DNA from: a virus | Virus genome (UHGV): UHGV-1378655 | Strand: one strand, 5' to 3' | Length of the DNA stretch: 42,822 bases | In this document: positions 2,660 through 34,452 of the stretch, one piece after another | How positions within the stretch are numbered: position 1 is the first letter of the stretch | How the letters are laid out: each line of letters starts with the position of its first letter | Made by a program: the position numbers and the translations under genes | The notes under the pieces: generated by a model | Databases searched by the model: none | Seen by the model: the letters and a program-made list of their open reading frames with translations, nothing else | What the model was told of the DNA's origin: nothing

Positions 2660-4029
2660 ATGAACGTAGCTATTTACGTTCGTGTCAGGTCAGTACATTA
2701 GAACAAAAAGAACATGGCTATTCTATTGAAGAACAAGAAAGGAAGCTCAAATCATTTTGTGAGATAAACGATTGGAGTGTATCAGATGTATTTATTGACG
2801 CTGGTTTCTCTGGTGCTAAACGTGAACGACCAGAATTACAACGTATGATGAATGATATTAAACGGTTTGATTTAGTTTTAGTGTATAAGTTAGATAGGCT
2901 TACACGTAATGTACGTGATCTACTTGATTTATTAGAGGTATTCGAACAGAATAACGTAGCGTTTAGAAGTGCGACAGAAGTTTACGATACATCTACAGCT
3001 ATGGGTAGACTATTTGTTACATTAGTTGGCGCTATGGCAGAGTGGGAAAGAGAAACCATTAGAGAGCGTGTTATGATGGGTAAACGCGCAGCGATTAAAC
3101 AAGGCATGATACTTACACCACCACCCTTTTATTATGATCGTGTAGATAACACTTACATTCCTAATGATTATAAAAAAGTAGTTTTATGGGCATACGACGA
3201 AGTGATGAAAGGTAATAGTTCAAAAGCTATAGCTAGAAAATTAAACGATTCAGATATACCACCTCCTAATGGCAAAAGGTGGGAAGATAGAACAATAACG
3301 AGAGCACTAAGAAACCCTATAACAAGAGGTCATTATACTTGGGGAGATGTATTTATAGAAAACTCTCACGAGCCTATTATTACCGAAGAAATGTATCAAC
3401 AAATAAAAGAAAGATTAGAAGAAAGAATCAACACTAAAATAGTAAGTCATGTATCAGTATTCAGAGGTAAATTTATTTGCCCAAGATGTGGTGGCACATT
3501 AACACTGAATACAGTGACAAGAAAGAGAAAGAAAGGTTATGTTACCTATAAAACGTATTATTGCAACACATGTAAAGCTAAAAAGGAGAGTTTCGGTTTT
3601 TCAGAGAATGAAGCGTTGAGAGTGTTTCGTGATTACCTATCTAAACTAGACTTAGAAAAATACGAAGTAAAGAAAAAACAAAAAGACGATGTCGTTACTA
3701 TTGATATAGACAAAGTCATGGAACAACGTAAAAGGTATCATAAATTATATGCTAAAGGGTTAATGCAAGAAGAAGAATTATTTGAATTAATCAAAGAAAC
3801 AGACGAAACAATCGCAGAATATGAAAAACAAAAAGAATTAGTACCCAGAAAATCACTAGATATAGATAAGATAAAAAAATTTAAAAATGCATTATTGGAA
3901 TCGTGGAAAATATTCTCGTTAGAAGATAAAGCGGATTTCATTAAGATGGCTATTAAATCTATAGACATAGAGTATGTAAAAATTAAAAACAGGCATTCTA
4001 TTAAAATAAGCGATATAGAATTTTATTAA
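2660..4029 (+). pseudogene. int: large serine recombinase (integrase), N-terminally frameshifted by a 5-bp tandem duplication
   Basis: RBS GGGGTGA 8 nt before ATG 2660; canonical MNVAIYVRV then stop; duplication GTCAG/GTCAG at 2684-2693; removing one copy restores MNVAIYVRVSTLEQ; the rest of the ORF (resolvase domain, recombinase domain, Cys-rich zinc ribbon) is intact; the track's ORF starts at GTG 2650 in the shifted frame. Confidence 0.6.
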
Positions 4030-4034
4030 CTTAT

Positions 4035-4089
4035 GTACGGAAGTATAGACACTCGATTAATATTTAATGTGTATACTTCCGTATTTTTA
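4035..4089 (+). terminator. putative integrase terminator
   Basis: GTACGGAAGTATA...TATACTTCCGTA(T) stem with a large loop, followed by TTTTTA. Confidence 0.4.
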
Positions 4090-4152
4090 TTTATAGAACC
4101 CGTAGAATTCGTCGAGTTTAGATTATCCGTGTCGAAATCGAGGCGTTTGAAA

Positions 4153-4186
4153 TTAAAAAACAACCACGCCCATTAAGAACGTGGTT
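4153..4186 (-). terminator. rho-independent terminator on the minus strand inside the int-lysin gap
   Basis: AACCACG/CGTGGTT 7-bp stem followed by GTTTTTTAATTT on the minus strand. Confidence 0.45.
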
Positions 4187-4236
4187 TAGAATATAGTATT
4201 AATTTAAAATTGGGAACAAAGATTATTATACAAAAA

Positions 4237-4295
4237 ACACAACCACTACTATATATTATATTCGCGACTATAAAATATAGCTTATACGGTTGTGT
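4237..4295. repeat. 59-bp imperfect palindrome (attP candidate)
   Basis: outer arms ACACAACC/GGTTGTGT; inner arms TATATATTATATTCG/CGACTATAAAATATA match 13/15; centre TCGCGA. Confidence 0.4.
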
Positions 4296-4568
4296 GCCAT
4301 TTTTACGGTTTCTATCCCACCGTCAAAGTCATAGTCGTATTCATCCTTCAGACAAAAAGCGAGTCCGCAATGGCAGGAGAATGTAAATATATTATAACAT
4401 AAAACTTATACATACACTCTATTTTACCACTGTCTAAGTTATAATTTTCATACATTTTATCACTTAGGTTATAGAAAAATCGATATAAAAATAAGGTAAC
4501 CGTCAGTAACAGTTACCTCAAGTACACTCCGCAGATGTGTACCGCAATTTCTATTTAATTATAGCGTA

Positions 4569-4598
4569 TTTGCGAGCGACATACATGTCGGTCGCAAA
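4569..4598. repeat. 30-bp near-perfect palindrome TTTGCGAGCGACATACATGTCGGTCGCAAA (attP or operator candidate)
   Basis: arms match 14/16. Confidence 0.4.
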
Positions 4599-4630
4599 GC
4601 TAGAAAACTACTAGAAATCTACTAGAAAAA
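4599..4630. repeat. tandem direct repeats of CTACTAGAAA with 11-bp period (2.5 copies)
   Basis: gCTAGAAAA, CTACTAGAAAT, CTACTAGAAAAA, directly abutting the 30-bp palindrome. Confidence 0.6.
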
Positions 4631-4775
4631 CCACCCAGTGACATGTGTGGGTAGTTAAAAGTAAACGGTGCAGTCAGCTTCTTACTGCTAAACGCAAGCA
4701 AGTCCTCTGCACATAATAAAACATACCAAATGATAGTATGCCAGTGTCAAACACTGTTTCCTCATTAACATTATA

Positions 4776-4810
4776 ACATAAAAAAACAGGGTAGCCATAG
4801 CGACTACCCT
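4776..4810 (-). terminator. rho-independent terminator of the lysis operon
   Basis: AGGGTAG/CTACCCT stem followed by TTTTTTTATG on the minus strand, about 40 nt after the endolysin stop. Confidence 0.6.
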
Positions 4811-4847
4811 TGTATAATGACGTGGTACCTGTATTGTACCACATAAT

Positions 4848-6572
4848 TTAATATACTTTTGTAATTCTAAGTCTTTCGTGCCATACCCAGTAGTTATCAC
4901 TAGGACCGTGTACACGACACCAACCGTCGATAATCTCGTAAACATAGAATAATTGACCTTTACCATATGTTGTATTAGTCATATTCCATGAATAATTACC
5001 TTTACCGCCATGCCTATTAAGTATAGTTGCGCCAAAGCTATCTGCGCGTGCTGCAAAGTATTTTTTGCGTTGCCAACCTAATTTTTTAGGTGGTATTTGA
5101 CCTATAGAAAGCTTATTTTTAGATTTCTTTGCTATTTTTTTCATTTCTTTTGTTTGCTTACTTGCTTTTTTGCCATCTCTTGTTTCATTGTGTTTATATT
5201 CTTTAGTGATGATCAAACGCTCATGCCATACCCAGTAATTACTACTTTCAGAATAAACACGCGCCCAACCTTCACGTACTTCATATACGTAAAACGGACT
5301 ATAACCTGCTTTGTATACTAGATTAGTTTTCTTCATATATCCGTTTTTAACATCTTTGCAGATAGTGACACCTGCACTGTCTGCTTTTGCAATATAATGA
5401 GGTGTTTTACTCCATACTAAGTTTTTAGGTACTCGTTTACCATTATATTTATTTGTAGCCTTGCGAGTTGTAACTGTTTTGATTTTGTTTACATCATAAT
5501 CTTCATCAACAAATGATGGCACAATGTAATGCGTTGTTCCATAAAAATTATCAACACGTAGTTTTGCAGGTGTATCTGCGTTACCATCAAAGTTTTGTTC
5601 TAATACAGTTTGTGTGTTAGTTCCTCCACTATTATCCCAAACTAAATAGATGTGACCGTATCTTTGGTATATACCATACGTACATACACCAATTGCTCCA
5701 ACTGGTGGTACATAATCCGGTGTATTTTTGACAATCTTCCAACCTTTAGGGAATATATTGAGGATACTATCTTTCGCATTACCCCACATTCTAACTTTAC
5801 CATTAGTTATGTGATATACGTAATCAACTGCTAAGTCCATACATTGATATGCCCAACGATTATCAAAGTCAACAAACTTACCTTTCAAGCTATACATATA
5901 ATTGATTGCACTTTGGTAATCTTTTGTTGATGGCTTAGATTTAGGTTTTTCTTTGTTTTTACCTTTGTTTCCGGCTTTCTTCTTGCTAACTTTGGGAACT
6001 TTAACGCCGTCAATATATTTAGCTACATACCCATCAAAGATACTCGTATTACGACCTAAGCCACAAGCTTCTAATAAGTTTCCAGGATCTTGCTTGTCAT
6101 ACTGTATGTCTTGATGACCTGGCATTTCATTTTTATAGTTAATCTTCCAAAATTTAGTAAGATAAGCCATGATACGCACTGCGTTATCTAACGACTTTAA
6201 GCTGCGTTTCTTATCTGTGAAGTAACATGCTTCTACACCAAATGCCGCATAGTCAGCGTCAGCATTATACCACTGATTATCTATAGTAGTATTCAACATA
6301 ACGTGCCATGCTACCTCTGTAACTGGAATACATATAATTGCTTCTTTGTCATCAACAAAAATATGAGCGCTCGCTACCATACTCCAAGCGATATTATAAG
6401 TATTTTTATAATAATTCACATTATCTTGTGCAGTAGTATTTGGATTCCCAGTATCATGAATAACTGCAAAACTAGGCTTTCCATTTTTAGTGTGTAATGC
6501 TTCTCCACTACGACGTGTTCCAATAGGCAACAAATCGTAACGCACTGGTACTCCATTCCATTTTTCTGCCAT
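4848..6572 (-). CDS. endolysin: N-terminal Amidase_2 (PGRP-type), central CHAP, two C-terminal SH3-like repeats
   Basis: HDTGN and GHQD amidase motifs; K-rich linker; CHAP with AYQCMDL Cys and YGHIYLV His; duplicated approximately 65-aa repeats ending NYWVWHERL. Confidence 0.85.
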   Translation of the reverse strand: MAEKWNGVPVRYDLLPIGTRRSGEALHTKNGKPSFAVIHDTGNPNTTAQDNVNYYKNTYNIAWSMVASAHIFVDDKEAIICIPVTEVAWHVMLNTTIDNQWYNADADYAAFGVEACYFTDKKRSLKSLDNAVRIMAYLTKFWKINYKNEMPGHQDIQYDKQDPGNLLEACGLGRNTSIFDGYVAKYIDGVKVPKVSKKKAGNKGKNKEKPKSKPSTKDYQSAINYMYSLKGKFVDFDNRWAYQCMDLAVDYVYHITNGKVRMWGNAKDSILNIFPKGWKIVKNTPDYVPPVGAIGVCTYGIYQRYGHIYLVWDNSGGTNTQTVLEQNFDGNADTPAKLRVDNFYGTTHYIVPSFVDEDYDVNKIKTVTTRKATNKYNGKRVPKNLVWSKTPHYIAKADSAGVTICKDVKNGYMKKTNLVYKAGYSPFYVYEVREGWARVYSESSNYWVWHERLIITKEYKHNETRDGKKASKQTKEMKKIAKKSKNKLSIGQIPPKKLGWQRKKYFAARADSFGATILNRHGGKGNYSWNMTNTTYGKGQLFYVYEIIDGWCRVHGPSDNYWVWHERLRITKVY

Positions 6573-6950: not shown

Positions 6951-9098
6951 TTATCTATATTTATCTCTGATATAATACATACCTTTTAATCCTACTTTTT
7001 TGTACAAACTGTTTATTGTTGTTGCTTGGAAATTACACCATTCGATAGCAGTAGCATATTGCATACGACCTGGATTACTAGGATTCCAACGCATTCTGTA
7101 TAAGGTGTTTTTACCTTTGTTAAAGTATTGTTTCCTAACGAACTTAGCACCACCTATAATACCATTACGTGGACTTGTCCAGCCTTGGCGTTTGGCATAC
7201 GCTATAGAAGCGTTAGGGTTGTTATCATATGCTGCAATACCAAAGTAGTTATAAATTCCATAGCGCCCACTAGCAAAGTTACTACGGCCATATCCACTTT
7301 CTAAGAAAGCGTGAGCAATTAAGTAAATTTCATTTACATTGTACTTCTTACAACCGTCTGCAAAAGCTTTACCTTGTCCAGATAAAGTGCCTTTACCTTT
7401 AAGTATCTTATTCAACTTACTTACTGATATACCTTGATATTTTCCTAAATCTAGCATTTGATAGCGTTGAGTTGAACTATTCCATATAGTGTTAGGATTC
7501 ATATACTTACTTGTTTGTGACCTAGAAGCATTACCCCAACCCCAACTATAAGATTTTTGAGGCATGCCATGAGCCATTTGTGCATTAAGCGCTTGTTGGA
7601 AAGTATATTTACTTTTCTCTACAACTACACGAGGTTTATTTGAAGTTCTGTTTGTCGTTTTTCCTGTCGACTTATCGTTCTGTGAAGGATTGTCGACCGA
7701 AGTTTTAGGTTTAATTTTTATCTTTGTCTTTGTAGTTGTTGTAGTAATTGTTTCTGTAAGTAATTTATCTCTTTTCAAATATAAACCGATAATTTTCTTC
7801 TCGACTTCTTTATATTTACTTTCATCAGGAATACCATTTTTGATTAAGTCGTAATTGATTAAATCTTTCATAGAACGCCATATGTTAGGATCTGCTTTGA
7901 TTGACGATTCAGAAAGTTTCACCTTACTCCAACTTAGCAACCAAACGCCGTAGATTAACGCTCTGATTTGATTGAGCATGAATTGGCGTTTGCTATCCGT
8001 TTGTCCTCCGCAAACTTCCATAACAAGCCAACCTGGATGTTCTGGTGCTTCTTCTGAATCAGGTCTAGGTGTCCATACACGCTCACGGTCTATATATACA
8101 TGAGGGTATTCATCTTCATTCACATATTTATTACGTTGTAAATACAATTCTTCAACAGAACGCATATGTGTACTCTCTTTGATATATATACCTTTTACTT
8201 TCCCTATCAACTTTTGCCCTTCAACCATATAATGATAAATATATTCCAAATCATCGTCTAAATCATATGCGAACGATGTATAGGAAACTTTGGTAACCTC
8301 TTTAGTTATAGGTTTCGTTTGTTCTTTTGTGTTTTTAGGAGTGTTTTCATTAGAGGGTTTGGACGGTGTACTACTTGGTTTCGATGGTTTCTTAGTTTCT
8401 GCGTGGTAGGGAGGTCTGACGAACCCACTTATACCATAGTATGTGTGTTTTTCTAACGAACCGGGAGAACCGGTATAACCGTTTGCATTTCGCCAATTTT
8501 GATCCACACTGGTGAAGTAACTCTTGTTAGATGGACCTACTACAACAGCTGTATGTCCTGTGCCATTATTAAAAGAACCTGTACCCCATACAGCCATATC
8601 TCCGGGTTTCGGAACAAAGTTTCTAGTATTCCTATAGAATTTGAACCCTTTAGGATATCTATACCACGCCATAGCAATCGCATTTCCTGTTGTTTTGAAA
8701 TGCCAATATCTATTGAAAATGTAGTTTGGTAAATCCCACAATTTTGTTACGATGACAATCGCCACTTGTCACCTTCTTCATATTTCTATGAATGTTCAGA
8801 CTATATCATCAACCTATTAGGTTGCTCCCCGTTTCCACTCGCTTGAGTGTACGTCTTTCGACTAGTCGTTGCACGTTCCTATTTATAGGCTTCGCTCATG
8901 ATTGCCTACAACATAACTTGTTTAGGGTTCCCATGAATTAGAGGAGTTTGCTATGATGATTACTCATCAAAGGTGCTAGATTCAACACTGGGCGCCATAA
9001 TAACCATCTACATCAACTCTTCTGCCAATCATTCTTTTTGCCCATGCTGCAACTTCCGAAGCAGTAGGTTTTCTTCTTTTAGGATTAGGTAATCCCAT
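6951..9098 (-). CDS. tail-associated peptidoglycan hydrolase (N-terminal CHAP, C-terminal glucosaminidase), split into two exons (9098-8985 and 8738-6951) by a 246-nt group I-like intron
   Basis: exon 1 reads MGLPNPKRRKPTASEVAAWAKRMIGRRVDVDGYYGAQC with RBS GAGGTGG; exon 2 resumes WDLPNYIFNRYW...; the Cys-His CHAP domain is restored by splicing; C-terminal LIAHAFLESGYG GH73-like motif. Confidence 0.7.
8739..8984 (-). ncRNA. ORF-less group I-like self-splicing intron (246 nt)
   Basis: begins after U of the Cys codon UGU; P1 GUGU paired to GCAC with G.U wobble; GNRA hairpin UGAUGA-GUAA-UCAUCA; P-like AAUUCAUGGGAA; Q-like AAUCAUGAGCGAAG; R GACUA; S GAUAUAGUC; P8 and P9-like hairpins (GAAA loop); terminal G before exon 2 UGG. 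Confidence 0.6.
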
Positions 9099-9236
9099 AT
9101 ATCCACCTCATTTCTGGGATAATAAAAAGCCGACTAAAAAGCCGGCTTAATAATCTAATTATTTACATTTACCAAACCAGAAACATTCCCAAAAACTTGC
9201 GCCTAAAAATAATCCGAACATGGTAACTCACCTCCT

Positions 9237-9569
9237 TTAAAGACCAAATATCATTTTGACAGTCGTTACGATTAAGGTTGAAATAATCGTACCGACAAGT
9301 CCTAACACCCAGAATTTAATCTTTTTGATATCTTCTTTACTTTCTTTTTTGTTTTCTTTTTCTAACTCCCTTTCTCTATTTATCGAATCTAAAGTAAAAT
9401 TCATTTTTTGATTAATCAAATTTTGACTGTGTTGTCCATCTTTAATCTTTTCCAAAGAGTCGAAGATTTTTTCGTCGTTATCTTCCAACCTTTTTATACG
9501 TCGTTCATAATCTCCTCTTTGGCTACTTTCTGTCATATAAACACCTACTTCACTTAAAATAAAAACCAC
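9237..9569 (-). CDS. hypothetical membrane-anchored coiled-coil protein
   Basis: RBS AAAGGAGGTGAG; C-terminal transmembrane segment; true start may be the internal Met (MTESS...). Confidence 0.55.
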   Translation of the reverse strand: MVFILSEVGVYMTESSQRGDYERRIKRLEDNDEKIFDSLEKIKDGQHSQNLINQKMNFTLDSINRERELEKENKKESKEDIKKIKFWVLGLVGTIISTLIVTTVKMIFGL

Positions 9570-28683: not shown

Positions 28684-29976
28684 TTACGTTAATATACTAA
28701 TTTTGCTTTGCCTCATATCTCTAGAAAGGGCATACCTACAAGAGTCTATGCTATGATCGTCTTTATCTTCTAATTTAGGAATAATATCCCCATCTTTATC
28801 AGTTTGATAATCTATGTTTTCAAATTCTCTAGCTATATTCGGTGTGCGTTTCGGATCTATTATGATAGCTTCTAAATCAGATAACCATTGTTCGCCATAT
28901 TCTCTACTATCCGGTCCTTTTTTTACACCTTTCACACGTTTTATTCCGTGTTCTTTTTTCAACTCGTCAATACTTTTCGGCTCAGCTGAGTCACAATAGA
29001 TTTCATCGGATTGATAACCACGTTTCCACAACTCTTTCGCAAATTCCCGGTTACTCATTTGTACCCCATATATTTCATCCATAGCGTACAAAATACGTTT
29101 CTTTTTATCATAGTGCCAACGTGTAAACGCTAGAGGGTCAGCAGCATAACCAAAATCTGCACCGTTACGAATATTATCAAAGTTATTGTATAACTCATCT
29201 GGTATCTTCTCTATTTGTAAATTGTTAAACGGCACAACGCCACTACCAATCGCTTCGCCCATATATTCCCAACGATAACGTTGTTCGTTACGTTCTTTCG
29301 CACTCTCTGCCTCTTGTATAAATTGCTTAGAGATAAAAGGATTATCTAAGTACGTTGAATGATGTACGAATGTGTTATCTGGTTGGAATGAGGTTTCATA
29401 TTTTTTATTAACCCACGATTGTTTTCTCTTAGGTGGGTTGTAACTAAAGAAAAACTTGTAGAACAATCCGTCGTCTAGTTCTCCACGTAACATAGAGTTA
29501 GTAATTGTTGTGACTTCATCTTCTGTCTTAAATTCTGCCAACTCCTCTATCCACATGATAGAAAAAGGGAACCGACTATCTTTTAACGACTTTAATCGCT
29601 CAGGGTTCTGCGCCCCTCTAAAGATAATCCGATTCCCTCTAGGAACATACGTGATTTCCATTGGCGACACTTTAACTTTGAACAGGTGTGACACCTTTTG
29701 TTCTTCTATCGCCCACTTAATTTGCTCAAATACTGATGTAGCTAGTGTATTGTCTGTCTTACGTACTACAACTGCATTCATAGGATAGCGCATGATTAAC
29801 TGTGTAATGATGATAGATATATCAGACGACTTACCACTACCACGTCCACCTTTAGCTACTATGTTAAGCTTCTCTCTATCTTTAGTTGCTTTCCATAAGC
29901 TATGGAAGTGTTTAGGTAACAGTTCAGATAGGTTAATCGATATCGTCATTGAACTGTACCGTCGCAGTCGTTTCAA
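28684..29976 (-). CDS. terL: terminase large subunit
   Basis: Walker A AKGGRGSGKS; 430 aa. Confidence 0.9.
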   Translation of the reverse strand: MKRLRRYSSMTISINLSELLPKHFHSLWKATKDREKLNIVAKGGRGSGKSSDISIIITQLIMRYPMNAVVVRKTDNTLATSVFEQIKWAIEEQKVSHLFKVKVSPMEITYVPRGNRIIFRGAQNPERLKSLKDSRFPFSIMWIEELAEFKTEDEVTTITNSMLRGELDDGLFYKFFFSYNPPKRKQSWVNKKYETSFQPDNTFVHHSTYLDNPFISKQFIQEAESAKERNEQRYRWEYMGEAIGSGVVPFNNLQIEKIPDELYNNFDNIRNGADFGYAADPLAFTRWHYDKKKRILYAMDEIYGVQMSNREFAKELWKRGYQSDEIYCDSAEPKSIDELKKEHGIKRVKGVKKGPDSREYGEQWLSDLEAIIIDPKRTPNIAREFENIDYQTDKDGDIIPKLEDKDDHSIDSCRYALSRDMRQSKISILT

Positions 29977-33576: not shown

Positions 33577-33790
33577 TCCTCATACACTCCCTATTCTTTC
33601 TTATATTTTCTTTCTCAACTTTCATCGTCACTCTGTTTCCTGCTACCTTAACCACAAAGCCTTTAACACCCATCTGTCTTAGTTCACGCTGTACTTCTGT
33701 AGGTGTCTTGCCTTGTGTGTTGTATTTGTATCGTTGGTTGATTGTGTCGGATAGTATCATGCGTTCATCTTCTCGTATTCGTCTGCCCAC
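33560..33790 (-). CDS. hypothetical basic protein
   Basis: 76-aa ORF. Confidence 0.4.
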   Translation of the reverse strand: MGRRIREDERMILSDTINQRYKYNTQGKTPTEVQRELRQMGVKGFVVKVAGNRVTMKVEKENIRKNRECMRNGRSN

Positions 33791-34452
33791 ATGTACATCA
33801 ATCCGTCACTTACATGTTTACGATTGCACTTTCTAGCAATGTTGCGTCTGTCTATGAATAATAATTTTTGAGCTTCTACTGTACTTGCGAATTCTTCAAC
33901 AATCCGGTTGTTGTTATCAACAAGATATACTGGCTTAGATATGCCTTTATTTCTGCGATACACTCTATATTTTTGCAATGTAGATTGGAATAGGTTATCT
34001 GCCATAAGATTGTTGTACCTACTGTCTTTAGGGTAAGCGTGATACCCTGTTCTCAAATTACCGATAAATGTTTCATATACAATATCTGCTGCACGATACT
34101 TCTTATTCTTATAAATGACTGTGGAAATACCGTTACATCCATTCGCAAACTTGTATTTTCCATCAGGTCTTTTCATTCTGCCTAAGTTACTTACGTATAG
34201 GTCGTACTTCTCGCTGTACTTCCAAATTTCATCTTTTGCTACAACTCTTTCGTTAAACACCTGTTTCTTATTCACTCTAGGCATCGTGTCTGTAAAGAAG
34301 CACTTCAACTTATCGTTATATGTGCCACGTTCTTTTTGGTACCACAGTGTGTTGAGTGGAATACCTGTAATGTTGTGCAAATGAGTTAAGTCTGTCTTAG
34401 TCACTGTGTGAGTAAATGGTTCATACATGTAAATCACATTTAACCCTCCCAC
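33757..34452 (-). CDS. free-standing HNH endonuclease with a NUMOD4 motif
   Basis: YSEKYDLYVSNLGRMKR (NUMOD4-like); HAYPKDSRYNNLMADNL (HNH_3-like). Confidence 0.6.
   Translation of the reverse strand: MGGLNVIYMYEPFTHTVTKTDLTHLHNITGIPLNTLWYQKERGTYNDKLKCFFTDTMPRVNKKQVFNERVVAKDEIWKYSEKYDLYVSNLGRMKRPDGKYKFANGCNGISTVIYKNKKYRAADIVYETFIGNLRTGYHAYPKDSRYNNLMADNLFQSTLQKYRVYRRNKGISKPVYLVDNNNRIVEEFASTVEAQKLLFIDRRNIARKCNRKHVSDGLMYMWADEYEKMNA

Follow-up and report, generated by a model that had tools for sequence, protein, structure and literature searches.

A group I intron of 246 nucleotides very probably splits the gene for the tail-associated peptidoglycan hydrolase in a Rockefellervirus-like Staphylococcus epidermidis phage

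Results

Organization of the interrupted hydrolase gene

The DNA analyzed is the virus genome UHGV-1378655, a single stretch of 42,822 nucleotides (nt) that is referred to below as the window. The gene considered here occupies positions 9098..6951 of its minus strand (2148 nt unspliced, with 1902 nt of coding exons), and there is little doubt that it is a tail-associated peptidoglycan hydrolase gene of a Rockefellervirus-like S. epidermidis phage, interrupted by a group I intron of 246 nt. Its components are listed in Table 1. Exon 1 ends with GGC GCC CAG TGT (...GYYGAQC) and is immediately followed by an in-frame TGA, which forms the 5′ terminus of the intron (UGA); the 3′ terminus is ...AAAUUG, with a terminal G. 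An initial annotation of this sequence had described an exon of 38 codons, preceded by a strong ribosome-binding site and running to ...GYYGAQC and then UGA, and its coordinates proved to be exact. In a mechanically produced list of open reading frames (ORFs), the gene is represented by a 604-amino-acid (aa) ORF that extends from GTG 8765 to 6951 and begins MAIVIVTKLWDLPNY. This start codon lies within the intron, with a Shine-Dalgarno (SD)-like sequence, AAGGUGA, placed 3 nt 5′ of it.

Table 1. Components of the hydrolase gene and predicted structural elements of its intron (coordinates refer to the window; the caret marks a splice site; fractions give the base pairs with compensatory changes, and cells are those of the alignment of 10 homologues described in the text).
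Feature	Position	Strand	Remarks
Exon 1 of the tail-associated hydrolase	9098..8985	minus	38 codons, MGLPNPKRRKPTASEVAAWAKRMIGRRVDVDGYYGAQC; final codon UGU = Cys38
SD sequence GAGGTGG of the hydrolase gene	9109..9103	minus	4 bases 5′ of the ATG (9098); read from the sequence
Group I intron, subgroup IA2-like (Twort orf142 type), no ORF	8984..8739	minus	RF00028, exact insertion/deletion, covariation
Exon 2	8738..6951	minus	595 codons and stop; starts WDLPNYIF...; rest of CHAP and C-terminal glucosaminidase
P1, GUGU^UG : UAGCAC	8988..8983 with 8978..8973	minus	exon GUGU and intron UG against the internal guide
Possible P10, UCUA	8980..8977	minus	pairs with UGGG (8738..8735) at the start of exon 2; read from the sequence
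P2, UGAUGA-GUAA-UCAUCA	8969..8954	minus	3/6 pairs compensatory; 100% of cells paired
P3, CUCCUC : GGGGAG	8946..8941 with 8830..8825	minus	4/6 pairs compensatory; 100% of cells paired
P4-P5-P5a domain, UCAUGG/UCAUGA (P and Q elements), CCUA/UAGG, AACA/UGUU	8936..8896	minus	Rfam, mapping and covariation
P6, GCG/CGU, and P6a, CCUA-UAAA-UAGG	8895..8873	minus	P6a, 4/4 pairs compensatory
P7, GACUA (R) : UAGUC (within S, GAUAUAGUC)	8867..8863 with 8803..8799	minus	invariant in 10/10
P7.1, GUC-GAAA-GAC, and P7.2, CACUC-AAGC-GAGUG	8862..8836	minus	3/3 and 4/5 pairs compensatory
P8, CAACCU-AAU-AGGUUG	8824..8810	minus	3/6 pairs compensatory
P9, UUCAUA-GAAA-UAUGAA	8792..8777	minus	GAAA-capped; 4/6 pairs compensatory
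P9.1, GUGACAA-GUGGCGA-UUGUCAU	8772..8752	minus	5/7 pairs compensatory
Terminator-like hairpin AAGCCGGCTT-TTTA-GTCGGCTT and T run	9127..9148	minus	context, outside the intron

Intron boundaries

Pairwise alignment with the uninterrupted hydrolase gene cn25 of phage CNPH82 (1902 nt) revealed a single insertion of exactly 246 nt in the window. The dinucleotide TG is repeated at both ends of the intron, which gives three formal placements of the insertion. Since U precedes the intron and G is its last base in only one of them (...CAG UGU^UGAAUC...AAAAUUG^UGG GAU...), the intron was assigned to 8984..8739 and the exons to 9098..8985 and 8738..6951. Removal of the intron restores the reading frame exactly, its terminal base being omega-G. 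The U before the intron and the G at its end had both been specified in the initial annotation, and in every homologue examined the intron occupies the same codon boundary.

Two public contigs, Logan SRR17780811 (L043) and ENA ERZ505665 (L044), carry the hydrolase gene without the intron (at 3001-4902). Their exons show 0 and 1 differences, respectively, from those of the window over 1902 nt, and the immediate flanks are identical; the spliced protein of the window is present as an exact sequence in public assemblies. These contigs represent either intron-less DNA alleles, in which case the intron would have been gained or lost very recently, or assemblies of spliced RNA, and the junction is confirmed either way.

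The spliced protein and its catalytic cysteine

The joined exons encode a protein of 633 aa, in which a CHAP domain (residues 31-119) and a Glucosaminidase domain (residues 495-616) were identified by comparison with Pfam. The CHAP profile (PF05257) is covered from position 4 to 81 of 81 by the spliced protein, and from 16 to 81 by the unspliced 604-aa ORF, in agreement with the earlier proposal that in-frame rejoining at WDLPNYIF restores the domain. Residues 23-149 align with residues 39-163 of the LysK CHAP chain 4csh_A, with Cys38 placed on residue 54, and the printed alignment of the sister chain of 4csh_A is gap-free up to the Cys. Cys54 is the catalytic nucleophile of CHAPK, and its mutation abolishes activity (PMC4126393). 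Since Cys38 aligns with this residue, the intron is placed by the alignment exactly after the codon of the catalytic Cys38 and before that of Trp39. An intron of 246 nt with no ORF, directly after the catalytic Cys codon, was the central claim of the initial annotation, and it is borne out by the exact insertion relative to CNPH82 and by the correspondence of Cys38 to Cys54 of LysK. In the intron-less homologues, the 38 N-terminal codons, including that of the Cys, are part of one continuous ORF.

Predicted structure of the ribozyme

A scan of the whole window against Rfam (gathering threshold of RF00028, 50 bits) yielded a single match at the gathering threshold. This was to RF00028, the group I catalytic intron, with a score of 93.8 bits (E value 5e-23) at 8995..8776 of the minus strand, spanning model positions 1-253 of 253. 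Since this score compares with a threshold of 50 bits, the resemblance to the P, Q, R and S elements is far beyond chance, and the initial reading of the insert as group I-like satisfies the covariance model.

As shown in Table 1, the intron can be folded into helices P1 to P9.1. The P element is AAUUCAUGGGAA and the Q element AAUCAUGAGCGAAG, and the two lie in the P4-P5-P5a domain. In P1, the U.G wobble is formed by U8985, the final base of exon 1, and G8976. The inner P6 pair occurs as G-C, C-G and U-A among homologues. The P7.1 and P7.2 hairpins, which form an insertion between the 5′ strand of P7 and the 3′ strand of P3 in the Rfam alignment, are a hallmark of subgroup IA as a pair, and the P3/P7 pseudoknot is the guanosine-binding site of group I introns. 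The start codon of the 604-aa ORF, GTG 8765, falls in the loop of P9.1. The possible P10 pairing is retained in four of the five other hydrolase-type variants (as UUCA in phage HOB 14.1.R1) and is absent in IME1323_01. Folding of the single sequence to its minimum free energy recovered every helix except the pseudoknot (z = -3.3).

Most of the motifs named in the initial annotation stand: P1 (GUGU:GCAC with the wobble), the GNRA hairpin (which is P2), the P, Q, R (GACUA) and S elements, and the GAAA-capped P9. One label has to be changed. The hairpin CACUC-AAGC-GAGUG, taken for P8, is really P7.2, and the true P8 is located at 8824..8810.

Covariation

The proposed pairs were examined in a structure-blind MAFFT alignment of 10 homologues, comprising the introns of the window, PH15, StB12 (from a phage of S. 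hominis), IME1323_01 (S. caprae), IME1318_01 (S. haemolyticus) and HOB 14.1.R1, together with four Twort-like introns from tail-tube genes of Herelleviridae. The controls were slid versions of the same structure, with the 3′ partners shifted by 1-3 columns. Standard pairs occupy 96.2% of the cells, compared with 33-46% in the slid controls, and changes on both sides were found in 38 of the 71 proposed pairs (0-8 in the controls). None of 500 shuffles reached any of the observed measures. All 10 introns have the U.G pair at the 5′ splice site, and three of the six P1 pairs covary with the differing exons of the Twort-like introns.

Distribution of the intron

The region 9098..6951 matches siphoviruses of S. 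epidermidis belonging to the genus Rockefellervirus in two patterns. Full-length matches were found in nine records representing seven phages (BE21, E72, E72m5, PH15, PG-2021_89, BE01 and phiIPLA5), and two-piece matches (89% coverage) in ten phages (CNPH82, phiIPLA7, IME1348_01, CNPx, 27, 48, 456, 459, PG-2021_90 and PG-2021_91). Sorted by allele, the phage records comprise 7 with the intron, 10 without it and 2 with an intron encoding an HNH endonuclease. A 23-nt signature of the intron was also detected in 28 IMG/VR contigs and in one species-representative genome of GTDB (S. petrasii). The 5′ junction reads ...CAG TGT^T(A/G)A... in all 29 of these further loci, and in each of the 26 whose 3′ end could be read, G precedes TGGGA as the last base of the intron. 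The same insertion site is occupied in StB12, IME1323_01, IME1318_01 and HOB 14.1.R1.

The intron of the window is identical (100%) to those of E72, E72m5, BE01, phiIPLA5 and BE21. Compared with PH15, the introns are 98% identical (98.4% over 246 nt) and the exons 88-90%. The difference is larger in comparison with StB12, IME1323_01, IME1318_01 and HOB 14.1.R1, where the intron shows 86-91% identity, and exon 1 with the first 400 nt of exon 2 only 65-69%. Because of this discordance, and of the presence or absence of the intron among close relatives, horizontal spread or loss is indicated. It may have proceeded by recombination involving intron-plus and intron-less alleles, or with the help of an endonuclease acting in trans, and part of the gap between intron and exon identity could reflect constraint on the ribozyme. 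Having no endonuclease gene, the intron lacks the defining feature of an autonomous homing intron, and any route of movement is read from such sequence comparisons. The candidate for a free-standing HNH endonuclease in the window, a 231-aa ORF (33757..34452), gave no match in Pfam.

Other introns in the hydrolase gene

In phages BE28 (L003:1609-2591; vB_SepS_BE28) and PG-2021_93, a different and seemingly unrelated insert, of 983 nt, is present in the same hydrolase gene. In BE28 it is located at GCU^CAA, between Ala36 and Gln37, 6 nt upstream of the site of the ORF-less intron. A U.G pair in a 9-bp P1 precedes the insert, which has an in-frame UAA at its 5′ end and G as its last base. Its ORF of 206 aa is annotated as an AP2-domain HNH endonuclease, and excision of the insert yields a 633-aa ORF. 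The ribozyme of this insert scores 39 bits in Rfam, which is under the threshold, and the insert is a probable group I intron. It shares the targeted catalytic motif with the intron of the window, and differs from it in site, in length and in the presence of the HNH-AP2 ORF. Five nucleotide substitutions are clustered around the insertion point in BE28.

The hydrolase gene of StB12 contains a second group I intron of 309 nt (L005:2970-3278; 94.8 bits in Rfam). It interrupts the Val codon of FTSV^DQNW, adjoining the acidic catalytic residue of CHAP; this segment aligns with the EQNW motif of CHAPK that holds Glu134 and Asn136. Removal of both StB12 introns gives a 645-aa ORF, in place of which GenBank has three distinct "peptidoglycan hydrolase" genes. 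Introns have evidently targeted the 5′ CHAP-coding region of these hydrolase genes repeatedly.

A location at the equivalent Cys codon was also considered for the well-known intron of lysK, the endolysin gene of phage K, and was rejected. The CHAP region of LysK (residues 39-163, including Cys54) was recovered as one uninterrupted tblastn piece in nearly all of the Kayvirus records sampled, and was split in P108.

Additional features of the locus

The ORF list contains no ORF on the intron strand inside the intron, where the only entry is an antisense ORF of 49 codons (8792..8941, plus strand). This ORF is situated wholly within the ribozyme core, and its counterpart in BE21 is annotated as the hypothetical protein BE21_0067; it is almost certainly an artefact of gene calling. 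The terminator-like hairpin at 9127..9148 is the sole such site within 8600-9400. It ends 28 nt 5′ of the hydrolase ATG and sits between exon 1 and the preceding 110-aa ORF (9569..9237).

Discussion

Proposed splicing pathway

The segment 8984..8739 (minus strand) can be identified with high confidence as a group I intron of the phage IA2, or Twort orf142, type, and is predicted to be self-splicing. This identification draws on the sequence, on the structure with its covariation, on a junction that is exact to the base and on the catalytic domain that is restored. From the established chemistry of group I introns, we infer that the pre-mRNA would fold into P1-P9.1, with the internal guide UAGCAC paired to the end of exon 1, whose final U takes part in the U.G wobble. 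A free guanosine bound in P7 would attack after this U, and the 3′ OH of exon 1 would then attack after the terminal G of the intron, possibly aided by the short P10 (UGGG:UCUA). Ligation of ...GAQC to WDLPNY... would create the message for the 633-aa virion hydrolase with its CHAP and glucosaminidase domains. On unspliced RNA, the UGA at intron bases 1-3 would presumably halt ribosomes at the splice site.

Several observations weigh against this interpretation and should be set beside it. The evidence of splicing concerns the PH15 copy, which is 98% identical, and splicing of this exact sequence is predicted. The claim of in vivo splicing in PH15 is itself second-hand, taken from a citing paper (PMC7235722). 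The five P7 pairs are invariant in 10 of 10 homologues, and covariation therefore gives no support to the pseudoknot itself; GACUA and UAGUC can pair, and P3 does covary. Finally, the contigs L043 and L044 could be spliced RNA, in which case the argument from polymorphism rests on the records of phage genomes alone.

Alternative explanations

The locus could also be read as two separate genes, one for a 38-aa peptide and the other for a Cys-less hydrolase that starts in or after the 246 nt (at GTG 8765, or at an internal ATG in BE21), with a non-functional spacer between them. Split or truncated genes have indeed been deposited for BE21, StB12, IME1323_01, IME1318_01 and BE01, many gene calls of 572-604 aa occur in the hydrolase protein cluster, and the GTG is preceded by the SD-like sequence mentioned above. 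However, the supposed spacer scores fully as a group I ribozyme and has undergone extensive compensatory change, the intron-less alleles form one ORF, and the truncated product would be devoid of the CHAP nucleophile. The GTG is not conserved either, since PH15 and all other variants (StB12, IME1323_01, IME1318_01 and HOB 14.1.R1) have GTA, and the AGAAGG motif is also kept in the Twort-like tail-tube introns, which indicates that it belongs to the ribozyme. An arrangement of two genes is consequently very improbable. A Cys-less 604-aa second isoform made from GTG 8765, alongside the spliced product, was rejected on the same two grounds, namely the GTA of the other variants and the identity of the purine-rich motif with a conserved ribozyme segment.

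It is equally hard to credit that the element is a decayed relic, dead for splicing, with the hydrolase reduced to a pseudogene or only its glucosaminidase half in use. Such decay would fit with the missing endonuclease gene, as in many degenerating introns, and the splicing of the copy in the window is itself a prediction. Against it, none of the core helices is disrupted, and the copies differ by compensatory changes, which demonstrates selection on the fold; the copy in the window even has one P8 pair more than that of PH15, which is reported to splice. Both exons are open and conserved, and copies with 100% identity are carried by five phages from named hosts, the genomes of which were deposited as complete. 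A functional group I intron remains by far the preferred explanation of the locus.

Consequences for annotation

The element is already known, as an ORF-less group I intron that has been both deposited and published, and is not a discovery. There is little scientific news in its presence here, and the practical value of the analysis lies in annotation. Automatic gene callers cut off the first 38 codons together with the catalytic cysteine (by the GTG start in this case), and enzybiotic cloning from the annotated ORF would yield a CHAP domain without its nucleophile. In the 90%-identity hydrolase cluster, members of 572-604 aa were found on 77, 47, 41 and 6 contigs, beside members of 633-636 aa. 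Because their lengths match those expected from internal starts, the short members are suggested to be intron-containing alleles called from such starts, and automatic annotation would then have removed the catalytic Cys from this hydrolase in many public records. The cluster representative P0003 (633 aa) is labelled Streptomyces xiamenensis and comes from a 2.8-kb contig. This host label is implausible for the tail hydrolase of a staphylococcal phage, and assembly contamination is the probable cause.

A possible competition between introns

Competition between introns through their endonucleases is known from phages SPO1 and SP82. A speculative and rather unlikely scenario for the hydrolase gene is that the ORF-less and the HNH-AP2 introns compete for one catalytic-Cys motif, with the short intron either mobilized in trans, by the HNH-AP2 endonuclease or a free-standing one, or protecting its allele by splitting the target of the endonuclease. 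The scenario is compatible with the 6-nt distance between the two insertion sites, with the cluster of substitutions in BE28 and with the existence of alleles that have identical exons but differ in carrying the intron. If true, it would provide a temperate staphylococcal-phage counterpart of the SPO1/SP82 case.

Comparison with known systems

That group I introns insert at codons for catalytic residues in phage genes is a textbook pattern, and the closest systems are found among staphylococcal phages. The introns in ph24 of PH15 and in hyd of E72 are the same element as that of the window, without an ORF and in the same gene and junction. The GenBank record of PH15 gives the hydrolase ph24 as a join of two pieces, and the PH15 DNA spliced at the junction deduced here equals ABI21813.1/YP_950686.1 residue for residue. 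The source paper for this intron is reportedly that of Daniel, Bonnen and Fischetti (2007, J Bacteriol 189:2086). Its splicing in vivo is reported in PMC7235722, citing Daniel et al. 2007, and a predicted non-coding intron in hyd of E72 was noted by Fišarová et al. 2021 (PMC8125051).

The genome in the window is that of a different mosaic phage, which shares approximately 94-95% identity with E72, PH15 and CNPH82 across some three quarters of its length. PH15 contains a second group I intron, in its large terminase gene, with a SegB-like homing endonuclease, whereas the window is without it: the Rfam match described above is the single one in the window, and terL (28684..29976, minus strand) is one ORF with complete terminase domains. 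The intron content of these phages differs gene by gene, terL being interrupted in PH15 and intact in the window.

A putative intron of 349 bp has been described in the tail hydrolase of the S. aureus phage DW2 (PMC4124061). As judged from this description, the DW2 insert is, like that of the window, group I-like and ORF-less, lies in the CHAP-coding 5′ part of the gene and has an in-frame stop near its start. It differs in its site (the downstream ORF keeps the Cys), in its size and in its similarity to Twort nrdE-I2.

Outside the hydrolase genes, the nearest relatives are the introns of the orf142 type. The Twort orf142 introns were reportedly described by Landthaler and Shub in 1999, and the structure of the orf142-I2 ribozyme has been solved. 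The intron of the window is 74% identical to orf142-I2 (AF132670) over 218 nt, and 75-77% identical to copies in the tail-tube genes of Kayvirus and Silviavirus. The Twort orf142 introns I2 and I3 belong to subgroup IA2 (PMC10136302), and the orf142-I2 ribozyme was used in a co-crystal with CYT-18 (PMC4275181). The intron of the window can be regarded as IA2-like on the basis of its P7.1/P7.2 hairpins and its homology to orf142-I2. The host gene of the Twort-type introns is that of the tail tube in myoviruses of the Herelleviridae, and here it is a tail hydrolase gene of a temperate siphovirus. The internal guide likewise differs between the Twort-type and the hydrolase introns, each matching its own exon, as reflected in the covariation of P1. 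In other respects they are alike, both being short and ORF-less, with helices P1-P9.1, the P7.1/P7.2 hairpins, a GAAA-capped P9 and the 3′ tail CGUAACA...UUG.

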